A DNA stretch of 10,620 bases from Thermoproteaceae archaeon (lineage in GTDB: Archaea > Thermoproteota > Thermoprotei > Thermoproteales > Thermoproteaceae). The notes under the pieces were generated by a model. It was not told where the DNA came from. It worked only from the letters and a program-made list of their open reading frames with translations, and ran no database searches. Below, one piece after another: positions 1 through 10,581 of this stretch. Every line of letters begins with the position of its first letter. The stretch's first letter is position 1. A program made the position numbers and the translations under genes. The stretch is from NCBI GenBank assembly GCA_020833025.1, contig JAJHRB010000053.1:1-10620 (forward strand), given 5' to 3'.

Positions 1-68
1 GCAGCGCCGAGGCGCCGCGTGAAGCCGGTGATTCCGCGCCGGAGAAGACAGCCAAAGCGGCGACGGAT

Positions 69-127
69 TGGCGCCGGGGGTGGGATTTGAACCCACGCCC
101 CCTCGACGGGGACGGGATCTCGAGTCC
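69..127 (-). repeat. Left att site: duplicated 3' 59 bp of tRNA-Ser(CGA)
   Basis: TGGCGCCGGGGG...GATCTCGAGTCC is identical to 10494-10552. It covers the anticodon loop through CCA and lacks the tRNA 5' half. Confidence 0.97.
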
Positions 128-185: not shown

Positions 186-1415
186 ATGATGTGGGAACAG
201 TACTTCTACAAGCTCACCGACCGGCAGCGCGTCGAGATAGTCAAGTGTCTCGTGGAAAGCCTGGGCGTCTCCATCGCCGACATAGCCAGGGCGGCCGGCG
301 TCTCGAAGATGGCCGTGTCCAATTGGGTGAGAGGCGTGAACGCGCCGCAGGTGGACAGACTGATAGCCCTCCACAGCGCCATGCCCGAGACCGTGGCCAG
401 GTGCCTGCCGGAGCCGCCGGCTGGCAGGCTTGAGGTGGACATGGCCCTCTCCACCCTGGCGCGGGCCGCCAGGGATCCCGCCCTCAGGGACTACATTCTG
501 CAGCAGCTCGAAACGCTCTTCCCGGGGCAGATCAGGCGCCAGCTGGCGTACCGCGTTGAGCGTGAAGACATTGAGGCCTTTAGGGGGCGTCTCCTCTCCG
601 AGGGCGTTGCTAAGGAGACTGCCGACGAGTACCTGCGCTACCTCGTGAAATTTCTAAGCGCCGCAGGCTGGGTCATCTCGCCCGACACGGTTCAGAGGGT
701 CTACGCCATAGAGACGCCCCACGTCAGGCGGAAAACCGCCGTCGCGCTGAAGCGCTTTATCGACACCGTCGTGAGGACGCGCGAGCCCCAGCTCGCCGCG
801 CTGCTGTACGACGCGTTCACAACGCCTAAGGTCAAGGCGAGGAATAACTTCCGCGTCCCCTCGCTCGAGGAGGTCAAGAAGGTCTGGGAGGAGACGAGCA
901 AAATCTCGCCGTGCGCCGCGGCGGTGTGGGGCATCATGGCGGAGACCGGCGTCCGTCTCGACCACCTGCTTAGGGCGAGACTGGACGGTCTCCAGCTCGA
1001 CAGGCGCCGGCTGCTCCTCGGCGAAACGGAGGGCCCGAAGAGACAACCATTGGTATTTTTGACGGAGGGCGCCGCGAGGTACTTGCGCGACGTGTATCTC
1101 CCCTGGCGCGAGAGGTTCTGCCGAATGCTGAGGCTCAGCACCGACAAGCTGTTCCCGTGCCGCGAGGAGACGCTGTACCAGTGGCTGAGGGAGGCGAGAC
1201 AGAGGGCTGGGCTTCCCTGGCTCGAGCCGAAACTGCTGAGGAAATTTGTGGCGCAGTGGCTGCTCGACCGCGGCGTCGACGTCGCGGACATCGCCGTGCT
1301 TCAGGGCCGCTCGCTGCCAGGAGGGCTAGCGGTGACGGTGGAACACTACATCGCGGACTTCGAGCGCAGGCTGCGCGCCGTTTTCGAGCAGCACGCCCTG
1401 CGGGTGTTCCCGTGA
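186..1415 (+). CDS. int: Tyrosine recombinase/integrase with N-terminal XRE-like HTH (unsplit, pNOB8-type organisation), 409 aa
   Basis: HTH SIADIARAAGVSKMAVSNWVRG; catalytic-type motifs TGVRLDH (R), GPKR (K), KLLRKF (R), LQGR, EHY (Y); adjacent to att. An in-frame TAA at 135-137 shows the ORF does not cross att. Confidence 0.93.
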   Translation: MMWEQYFYKLTDRQRVEIVKCLVESLGVSIADIARAAGVSKMAVSNWVRGVNAPQVDRLIALHSAMPETVARCLPEPPAGRLEVDMALSTLARAARDPALRDYILQQLETLFPGQIRRQLAYRVEREDIEAFRGRLLSEGVAKETADEYLRYLVKFLSAAGWVISPDTVQRVYAIETPHVRRKTAVALKRFIDTVVRTREPQLAALLYDAFTTPKVKARNNFRVPSLEEVKKVWEETSKISPCAAAVWGIMAETGVRLDHLLRARLDGLQLDRRRLLLGETEGPKRQPLVFLTEGAARYLRDVYLPWRERFCRMLRLSTDKLFPCREETLYQWLREARQRAGLPWLEPKLLRKFVAQWLLDRGVDVADIAVLQGRSLPGGLAVTVEHYIADFERRLRAVFEQHALRVFP

Positions 1416-1455
1416 GCCGCGCGGTGGGGCCGGCCGCATGGCTCTGAAATGCAAA

Positions 1456-1479
1456 ACTCTCCGTTAATCGGCGGAGAGT
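1456..1479. terminator. Hairpin downstream of int (possible terminator/processing signal)
   Basis: ACTCTCCG (1456-1463) and CGGAGAGT (1472-1479) form a perfect 8-bp stem with an 8-nt loop, 40 nt after the int stop. Function is inferred. Confidence 0.35.
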
Positions 1480-1511
1480 GGAAAGAGAAATGTTTAAGTA
1501 TTTGCCAGTAT

Positions 1512-1594
1512 AAAAAGACGGGCCGGGGAGGGTCAGCCTGCGCGGGTTAGTTCACGGGTCGCCTCAACACCCTCTCATCACCCCCGGCCCGTCT
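1512..1594 (-). ncRNA. Candidate box C/D guide sRNA
   Basis: Minus strand reads GUGAUGA (box C, 1581-1575), 12 nt, GCGA (D'-like), CCC, GUGAACU (C'-like), 12 nt, CUGA (box D, 1536-1533). It is enclosed by a perfect 13-bp terminal stem (1594-1582/1528-1516) ending in a U5 run (1516-1512). Confidence 0.65.
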
Positions 1595-1851
1595 CCGTCT
1601 CCTCTACTCACGCACACCTCGACTCCCTGCCCTGCCTATACAAAACTAACACCAGCGGCATGCCCGCGATTGCATGGCGATTATGGCAATTAATGGTGCA
1701 TTACAAACGCCCCCGCGGGATGTTTCCCCAACGGCGCAGTGCTGCTAGCGCGCGCCTCGGCACTTTCTTGAGCAACCTGGCAAGCCCGGCCGCCACCCGC
1801 CCGAAGATTGGAGGCGCGCACCTCAGCGCGAACTCCCTCTCCGCCGGACTT

Positions 1852-3060: not shown

Positions 3061-3278
3061 CTTCAGGAACGCCCGCCAGAGCCGCGCAGCGCCTGTGGAT
3101 CTCGTGAGAGGTGTCGCGTGCTCGCACTATGCCCGCCACTTAAGCATGCGCCAAAACCGCCCCCTTTCGGCGCAGCGCGCCAAAAGGGCGACCTGGCACA
3201 AACTGCCGGAAACACCCCTTGCGGCACTGCGGCCATCAAGGCTATGTTTCAACCCTTCTTGAGATTCGACCGCTCGCG

Positions 3279-3731
3279 TCACCCGCCTTCTGGCACTTTT
3301 AAGCTTTTCGCCCGTTTTTGCAGGCCCGGCGCCCGCTTTTCCCGGCTTTTTCTTGGGCAAACCAACTCATCTCTTGTGTACCGCACAATTCCCATCCGCA
3401 CAAGCCTTTTGCGAATAAAGGAAACAGAGACGCCGCAACGCCTGGCGACCTCTGCAGCCGGGGCGCAGCCGCTTGCAACCATCTCGACGACGCAGGTGGT
3501 CCTGTCGAGCCGCGGCGCGAGCGCCGTTCTGAGCCCCACTATCATTTCTCTGAGCTCTGCCACCTGCTTTGCCAGCTCGGAGATTGCGAGGGAGAGGCGT
3601 TTGATGTGCCCCTCAATTTGCCCGAGCCTGCCGCCCAGGTCAAACCGGGTGTCTTCTAGCGCGGCGAAAATTCCGAGGAGCCTGTCGGATATCGCTAGCA
3701 GCAGCTCCGTGTCCCTCTTCTTGCCGAACAC
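3279..3731 (-). CDS. Coiled-coil protein with C-terminal HTH, 150 aa
   Basis: Heptad-like helix LGQIEGHIKRLSLAISELAKQVAELREMIVGL, then HTH AAEVARRCGVSVSFIRKRLVRMG. AAAAA-CACTTAA promoter-like element about 22-35 nt upstream of the GTG. Confidence 0.75.
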   Translation of the reverse strand: MFGKKRDTELLLAISDRLLGIFAALEDTRFDLGGRLGQIEGHIKRLSLAISELAKQVAELREMIVGLRTALAPRLDRTTCVVEMVASGCAPAAEVARRCGVSVSFIRKRLVRMGIVRYTRDELVCPRKSREKRAPGLQKRAKSLKVPEGG

Positions 3732-10473: not shown

Positions 10474-10493
10474 TTAATTTTGTCAAGAGGATC

Positions 10494-10552
10494 TGGCGCC
10501 GGGGGTGGGATTTGAACCCACGCCCCCTCGACGGGGACGGGATCTCGAGTCC
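10494..10552 (-). repeat. Right att site (within the intact tRNA)
   Basis: 59-bp identity to 69-127. Confidence 0.97.
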
Positions 10553-10581
10553 CGCGCCTTGGGCCGCTCGGCCACCCCGGC
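10494..10581 (-). tRNA. tRNA-Ser (anticodon CGA), intronless, CCA encoded, 88 nt
   Basis: Acceptor stem GCCGGGG/CCCCGGC, G discriminator plus CCA, anticodon arm CGGGA-CTCGAGA-TCCCG (anticodon at 10547-10545), long variable arm, GGTTCAAATCC T-loop. Confidence 0.97.

Follow-up and report, generated by a model that had tools for sequence, protein, structure and literature searches.

The window analysed here, the whole stretch of 10,620 nucleotides, comes from a Pyrobaculum genome assembly of 1.56 Mb in 126 contigs (62.6% GC, 94% completeness), referred to below as the host genome. Two att repeats bracket an element of about 10.4 kb that is integrated in tRNA-Ser, and inside it lies a hairpin carrying the boxes of a C/D guide RNA. 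This att-bounded residence bears out the location in a mobile element given in the original prediction. The hairpin lies 100 nt past the integrase stop codon, convergent with the integrase gene, and 258 nt downstream of an open reading frame (ORF) of 245 amino acids that is encoded on the hairpin's own strand. The element also encodes a UvrD-like helicase and gives a weak prim-pol hit; Pfam searches with neighbouring ORFs were uninformative. The main features of the element are as follows.

65..127, no strand: att repeat, a partial tRNA-Ser (3' part) at the integrase end, 98.4% identity over 64 nt to 10489-10552
186..1415, plus strand: integrase (HTH and archaeal tyrosine integrase domains; PF16795, PF00589)
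1516..1594, minus strand: whole MITE-like C/D sRNA unit (inverted-repeat stem around a C/D core)
10489..10552, no strand: att repeat within the intact tRNA-Ser(CGA)
10494..10581, minus strand: tRNA-Ser(CGA), intact

Elsewhere in the window, positions 3246-3340 (plus strand) hold a solitary CRISPR repeat (GTTTCAACCCTTCTTGAGATTCGAC) with about 70 nt resembling the flanks of the CRISPR arrays that the host carries on contigs 89 and 103. About ten other contigs have similar lone repeats, one of them directly beside a tRNA-Ser on C102. The lone repeat of the window may be what is left of a mini-array, or it may be a scar that recombination has left on the mobile element.

Anatomy and folding of the C/D-like unit

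Read along the minus strand, the unit and its surroundings comprise the following parts.

1637..1644, minus strand: TATA-like TTTGTATA, 43 nt upstream of the stem; position differs in the contig 69 copies
1582..1594, minus strand: 5' arm of the 13-bp terminal inverted repeat, AGACGGGCCGGGG
1575..1581, minus strand: box C, GUGAUGA
1563..1574, minus strand: D' guide, 12 nt, GAGGGUGUUGAG, complementary to tRNA-Leu(CAA) nt 32-43
1559..1562, minus strand: degenerate box D', GCGA, with the GA kept
1556..1558, minus strand: D'-C' spacer, CCC
1549..1555, minus strand: degenerate box C', GUGAACU, with GUGA kept; its C6 can pair with G1 of D'
1537..1548, minus strand: D guide, 12 nt, AACCCGCGCAGG, antisense to tRNA-Leu over the variable-arm end, T stem and U54U55
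1533..1536, minus strand: box D, CUGA
1529..1532, minus strand: C/U-rich spacer CCCU between box D and the 3' stem arm
1516..1528, minus strand: 3' arm of the terminal inverted repeat, CCCCGGCCCGUCU
1512..1516, minus strand: T5 run, to judge from its sequence a likely archaeal termination signal
1453..1500, minus strand: conserved 3' flank with TACTTAAAC (TATA-like), TTTCTC and a CTCTCCG...CGGAGAG hairpin, followed by TTTT

The spacing 7-12-4-3-7-12-4 is exact and spans 49 nt. Boxes C and D with this spacing, the degenerate D' (GCGA) and C' (GUGAACU), the perfect 13-bp stem with its U5 tail and the TATA-like box TTTGTATA had all been proposed beforehand, and each is present where it had been placed. 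Boxes C/D and C'/D' with two 12-nt guides also match the dual-guide layout of archaeal C/D sRNAs, as predicted. The TATA-like box is weak evidence because its position is not conserved in the copies on contig 69. The motif RTGATGA-N36-44-CTGA occurs once on the two strands of the window, compared with 0.035 expected from 200 mononucleotide shuffles, and a terminal stem of at least 8 bp beside such a motif was found in none of 200 shuffled windows. Across the genome, only 2 of 45 such motifs have a stem of at least 8 bp. An Rfam search with the unit returned only a sub-threshold match to the Pyrobaculum C/D family sR36 (RF01124; 19.3 bits against a gathering threshold of 55, E = 0.31). In addition, the D'-CCC-C' block (GCGACCCGUGA) is present in a compact sRNA of the relative G018. 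Judged by these sequence features, the hairpin is a genuine box C/D guide-RNA-like gene.

The terminal stem does not sit where a canonical C/D RNA would have it. Its 13 pairs are perfect, extending to 16 bp when G-U pairs are included, and to this extent the stem originally described stands; however, it is offset by 4 nt from the canonical register of the C/D kink-turn (K-turn). That register is held by GGG/CCC only, a stem of 3 bp in which the CCC of the spacer (1529-1532) pairs with the GGG at 1585-1583. Predicted energies are -21.1 kcal/mol for a combined fold, in which a 5-nt bulge separates the 3-bp stem from 11 bp of distal stem, and -30.1 kcal/mol for the long stem with both guides free. 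The predicted minimum free energy (MFE) of the unit is -42.9 kcal/mol (z = -2.96). This fold uses the alternative GAGGG(U)/(A)CCCUC pairing, about which the original prediction had cautioned; it is 12.8 kcal/mol better than the fold with both guides free and, in naked RNA, sequesters the 5' half of the D' guide. The complete set of five pairs between GAGGG and CCCUC is found only in six Leu-directed copies of the repeat family described below, those whose guide starts with GAGGG, and only two to four of the five pairs form elsewhere. The pairing was therefore rejected as a conserved feature and is taken to arise incidentally from the guide sequence and the C-rich spacer. D' and C' may form a K-loop, as both boxes keep their GA dinucleotides and a pair between C6 of C' and G1 of D' is possible.

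A repeat family in Pyrobaculum genomes

The search for a paralogous copy that the original prediction had recommended found two strong ones, both on contig 69 of the host genome, with 84% and 75% identity to the window unit. A covariance model (R1) was built from four copies with the terminal stem as its only structure. It scores the window unit at 103 bits and gives three strong and two weak hits in the host genome (at 94% completeness), 16 hits in Pyrobaculum calidifontis (G017), and weaker single hits in G002, G052 and G055. The window unit is clearly homologous to the P. calidifontis copies in sequence and structure, and its D' guide is a single nucleotide apart from that of one of them (L056).

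In a comparison of about 20 homologous copies, the guides vary while boxes C and D change little or not at all, the very pattern that the original prediction had proposed looking for in related elements. Box C appears as UGAUGA, UGAUGU, UGGUGA or CGAUGA, and box D (CUGA) shows no variation in the tabulated family copies. In P. calidifontis the D' and C' boxes read GGGA/GGGG/GGGT and xCUGCCCG. A C/U-rich spacer of 2-5 nt separates box D from the 3' arm in 16 of the 19 tabulated copies. The stem changes between genomes: it is GGGCCGGGG/CCCCGGCCC in the window and GGGGAGGGG/CCCCTCCCC in P. calidifontis, with GGGGCAGGGG in G002 and GGGCCCAGGG in G055. It covaries as it changes, with 88% of stem cells paired across copies, nine of the 13 pairs altered on both sides, and a covariation score reached by none of 500 shuffles, all in an alignment whose rows were fitted to the covariance model and in a few cases come from the reverse strand. 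Such covariation is equally expected from terminal inverted repeats acting at the DNA level. The 3' flank common to P. calidifontis copies (TTAGATAAA..TTTCTCCGCCGAC) aligns with positions 1453-1500 of the window, which indicates that the repeat unit is longer than the hairpin. The possibility that this conserved downstream flank in P. calidifontis is an integrase remnant was considered and rejected.

Several further observations concern the P. calidifontis units themselves. With their conserved 5' and 3' flanks they reach up to about 630 nt (in L039, 603573-606663, at positions 1138-1768 and 2140-2600), and L039 contains one convergent pair with about 550 nt between the two units. The TATA-like TTAGATAAA lies about 25 nt beyond the hairpin and could drive outward or antisense transcription. 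Five of 14 copies are located within 3 kb of a tRNA gene.

Related units occur in other genomes as well. A third Pyrobaculum genome contains one degenerate copy (G002:C1, L016, 1501-1585, minus strand) with the stem GGGGCAGGGG, box C AUGAAGU and box D CGGA. In a genome from another family of the same order, a C/D sRNA (G055:C4, L018, 1501-1593, plus strand) has C, D', C' and D boxes that are all fully canonical; its terminal stem is 10 bp long, CCCUU forms the spacer behind box D, and then comes a T5 run. Its canonical boxes within the same architecture suggest that the offset long-stem design is not limited to degenerate copies. Another R1 hit, in the host genome itself (L057, G000:C117:2713-2796, plus strand), is an sRNA whose C, D' (CUGA) and D boxes are canonical and whose C' box reads GUGAGCG, located 66 nt past an uncharacterised ORF of 477 amino acids. 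Its stem (GGGGCCGGGGG/CCCCCGGCCC) is that of the window copy, and eight contiguous nucleotides of its D' guide match the variable arm of tRNA-Leu.

A family of this kind has been described in P. calidifontis as "MITE-like elements resembling sRNAs", with at least 15 copies (Lui et al., 2018; Nucleic Acids Res 46:5678, PMC6009581). These copies have near-consensus C and D boxes, highly degenerate D' and C' boxes, and conserved imperfect flanking inverted repeats, and their guides are moderately similar to one another and either orphan or directed at non-conserved tRNA sites (Lui et al., 2018). Five were classed as sRNAs (sR131, sR133, sR137, sR139 and sR141); sR141 alone accounted for 13.6% of small-RNA reads, and many antisense reads were seen in the family (Lui et al., 2018). 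The elements occupy unstable regions away from conserved genes, and they were not detected in five other Pyrobaculum species (Lui et al., 2018). Matched by description, the window unit very probably belongs to this published family.

Complementarity of the guides to tRNA-Leu

The tRNA set used for target searches was taken from the Rfam tRNA model; ARAGORN had given only 13 tRNAs and no target. The contiguous tRNA-Leu of the host (C100:10709-10812, minus strand) has the anticodon CAA once a 19-nt non-canonical intron is removed, and both guides of the window copy match it. The D guide pairs with CCUGCGUGGGUU over all 12 nucleotides (11 Watson-Crick pairs and one G-U), covering the end of the variable arm, the T stem and U54U55. 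None of 300 shuffled guides did as well, the complementarity is bounded exactly by the C' and D boxes, and the target is present in all five tRNA-Leu loci of the host genome. The D' guide pairs at 10 of 12 positions with CUCAAGACCCUG, nt 32-43 of the spliced tRNA-Leu(CAA), which comprise the anticodon loop and the 3' side of the anticodon stem; the mismatches are at G37 and nt 43. Taken alone the D' match is not significant, as 38 of 100 shuffles were as good. In rRNA, neither guide had a convincing sense-strand match among the 16S and 23S sequences of G017 and G005 and the partial host 16S, the host 23S being absent from the assembly. The rRNA genes of the host's genus-mates carry introns.

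The register of the D' guide recurs throughout the family. When the best match was sought among 30 P. calidifontis tRNAs, it fell exactly on nt 32-43 of a Leu or Gly tRNA for 14 of 17 family copies, whereas shuffled D' guides reached 0.2 copies on average and 2 at most. The anticodons tracked in these 14 copies are CAA, GAG, UAG, CCC and GCC, and the D' guide of the degenerate G002 copy likewise reads as antisense to the anticodon loop of tRNA-Leu(CAG). In most copies the D guide has its match in the D-arm (nt 10-21) of the tRNA that the D' guide matches; in two copies this match is 11 of 12, with none of 100 shuffles as good. The window copy and one of the contig 69 copies (m) have a D guide to the T-arm instead. 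The sequences thus describe a common guide design, in which D' is antisense to tRNA nt 32-43 and tracks the anticodon and D is antisense to the D- or T-arm. The tRNA-Leu matches of both guides and the family-wide nt 32-43 register are new in this analysis.

These patterns bear on two explanations that require no guide function. In the first, the hairpin is a bidirectional terminator or other structural hairpin between convergent genes, and the boxes are coincidental. Its location between the convergent integrase gene and the 245-aa ORF would suit such a role, as would a strong hairpin followed by T5. However, termination in archaea generally requires T-runs only, and the plus strand has no T-run past the hairpin. 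The unit is also found in other, unrelated contexts, where C and D are conserved and the guides track tRNA anticodons, and the conservation of the boxes across copies largely refutes this explanation, which we regard as highly improbable.

In the second, the unit is a fragment of a tRNA-Leu gene in antisense orientation, for example a relic of tRNA-targeted integration. Both guides are indeed antisense to tRNA-Leu, and in one contig 69 copy (p) and in the P. calidifontis copies the order of anti-anticodon and then anti-D-arm is colinear with an antisense tRNA. The window order, anti-anticodon and then anti-T-arm, is not colinear, the complementarity appears to end exactly at the box borders, and the element is integrated in tRNA-Ser rather than tRNA-Leu. 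The 14-17 nt between the guides are unlike the intervening tRNA sequence, and in the window copy this segment has no discernible tRNA similarity. Together with the non-colinear guides, this argues for a guide function over a relic of a tRNA gene, and the relic is an extremely improbable account.

The host tRNA-Leu genes are themselves unusual, as they are apparently split. Two stand-alone 5' fragments (nt 1 to about 21) lie at C89:44350 (plus strand) and C89:55027 (minus strand). Four stand-alone 3' fragments, with the anticodons CAA, UAG, CAG and GAG, lie at about 22690-22800 on C34 (plus strand), about 48470-48580 (plus strand) and 53480-53590 (minus strand) on C89, and about 3140-3250 on C102 (plus strand). 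Each 3' fragment has its own promoter-like box (AAAACTTAAAAA), and the GC-rich trailers of the 5' fragments are complementary to the leaders of the four 3' fragments. All five tRNA-Leu genes of P. calidifontis are contiguous, and trans-spliced tRNAs were reported to be absent from the sequenced Pyrobaculum (Chan et al., 2011; PMC3218864).

Mobility, possible function and comparison with known systems

The best explanation, which we consider probable, is that the unit is one copy of the Pyrobaculum MITE-like sRNA family and a proposed tRNA-Leu-directed guide. A C/D sRNA gene within a 10-16-bp inverted repeat would have landed in the 10.4-kb element or been inherited by it, where it now lies in the gap that separates the 245-aa ORF from the convergent integrase gene. 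Transcription would proceed along the minus strand and end at the T5 run. Boxes C and D may then form a K-turn on the proximal GGG/CCC, with the distal 11 bp paired across the 5-nt bulge, and the RNA would be bound by L7Ae, Nop5 and fibrillarin; fibrillarin and Nop5 are both encoded in the host genome. The D' guide would pair with the anticodon loop and 3' anticodon stem of tRNA-Leu(CAA) (nt 32-43), and the D guide with the variable-arm end, T stem and U54U55 common to all tRNA-Leu. By the N+5 rule, the predicted outcome is 2'-O-methylation of A36 and C48, or else the pairing may act as a chaperone only. To our knowledge, neither A36 nor C48 of tRNA-Leu is a recognised 2'-O-methylation site. 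Whether the window copy itself makes a working tRNA-directed RNP is finely balanced, and on the sequence features at hand we lean slightly towards doubt.

One alternative is that the copy is an inert hitch-hiker, a decaying MITE-like repeat that is relevant as DNA only, as an inverted repeat mobilised in the past, and whose tRNA match is inherited from a functional ancestor, with no working RNP. Consistent with decay, C' and D' are degenerate, the stem is out of register, an alternative fold competes, and two positions of the D' guide are mismatched to the target. Of 15 P. calidifontis copies, only 5 were classed as sRNAs (Lui et al., 2018). The contig 69 copies lie in a wrecked element around a 129-nt integrase fragment, and the closest related integrase loci have no copy. 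In contrast, the boxes of the window copy are the best of the family, with consensus C and D, GA in D' and GUGA in C', and the copy has exact 12-nt guides, a 3-nt D'-C' loop and a T5 run directly after the stem. Its D guide is perfect over 12 nt and bounded by boxes, unlike the D guides of most copies, which looks like maintained or newly acquired targeting. On balance, we consider the inert repeat rather unlikely.

The three strong copies of the host genome are all linked to one integrase family, with the intact gene on contig 17 and a remnant on contig 69. On contig 69, two inverted sRNA units in convergent orientation (725-815, plus strand, and 1244-1329, minus strand) bracket the 129-nt integrase fragment (876-1004), about 600 nt from a second tRNA-Ser copy (39-123). 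The paired units, the integrase fragment and the nearby tRNA-Ser make this region look like a decayed sister of the window element. When scored with the covariance model without filtering, no such hairpin was found within 1.5 kb of the closest integrase homologs, which are on contig 12 of the same genome (71% identity) and in G015 (66%), G006 (twice, 61%) and G019 (56%). An integrase search across the genome collection gave no match. A pattern scan of the viral collection (gap of 33-34 nt) revealed no further carriers, and a metagenome pattern scan returned only contig 69 itself and a chance match inside an unrelated gene. The absence of the unit from the closest integrase loci and from these wider collections suggests that it is an accessory to the element lineage. 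The contig 12 homolog belongs to a second related integrated element (contig of 11,687 nt), which has no sRNA unit and has tRNA-like att repeats at 492-612 and 11352-11454.

These comparisons weigh on the adaptive role first suggested for the hairpin, in which the element carries its own guide and reprogrammes the modification of host tRNA-Leu to its own benefit. The unit lies within the att boundaries, all three strong host copies are tied to the integrase family in comparable arrangements on contigs 17 and 69, and both guides match one tRNA species. However, related elements with integrases 56-71% identical have no unit, the P. calidifontis family is dispersed with no linkage to integrases, and no further carriers emerged from the viral and metagenome scans. 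The element genes show no bias towards UUG, which accounts for 4.8% of their Leu codons and 5.0% of those genome-wide. The guide is therefore not the element's own, as the unit belongs to a dispersed repeat family that the closest integrase homologs do without, and a redirection of host methylation by the element found no specific support. We consider such adaptive cargo decidedly improbable. A broader scenario, in which integrative elements ferry tRNA-directed C/D guide repeats between Pyrobaculum genomes and an active guide directs the host methylation RNP to two sites of tRNA-Leu, its anticodon loop and its T-arm, and so alters the maturation or decoding of a tRNA whose genes are apparently split in this host, is speculative and also improbable. 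For the MITE-like guide family that we favour as the source of the unit, a well-preserved copy inside an integrative element provides a tangible means of spreading horizontally. Were the RNA active, the mobile element would import a guide that modifies a host tRNA; if it is inactive, the unit is another repeat copy in an unstable region.

The original prediction knew of no described archaeal example, and this holds in part: the RNA family has been published (Lui et al., 2018), whereas none of the literature found describes a copy residing in an integrative element. A literature search for plasmid- or virus-borne archaeal C/D sRNAs, which was not exhaustive, returned nothing relevant. Like the published MITE-like sRNAs, the window unit has near-consensus C and D boxes, degenerate D' and C' boxes, flanking inverted repeats, multiple copies and guides with complementarity to tRNA, in addition to its homology to the G017 copies. 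It differs in that it comes from another Pyrobaculum genome, the published family having been detected in P. calidifontis only, and in that it has the stem GGGCCGGGG rather than GGGGAGGGG, only three strong copies in its genome, better preserved D' and C' boxes, and a D guide to the T-arm of tRNA-Leu rather than the D-arm. It is also located inside an att-bounded integrative element, beside an integrase. On this assignment, the only known "transposon-like" family of archaeal methylation guides now extends beyond P. calidifontis.

Canonical archaeal dual-guide C/D sRNAs share RUGAUGA and CUGA boxes, internal D' and C' boxes, two 12-nt guides and a 3-nt loop with the window unit, and both guides can likewise be directed at nearby sites of one RNA. 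The terminal stem of such RNAs has from zero to a few base pairs, unlike the stem of 13-16 bp offset by 4 nt seen here, and the window unit further departs from them in its degenerate C' and D' boxes and in matching no Rfam family at threshold. A more distant parallel is found in the snoRTs of mammals and platypus which, as outlined by Lui et al. (2018), are also multiplied and dispersed C/D guide genes with orphan guides. The archaeal family differs from snoRTs in showing no sign of reverse transcription (no poly-A), in being organised as an inverted repeat rather than a retroposon, and in its archaeal host.
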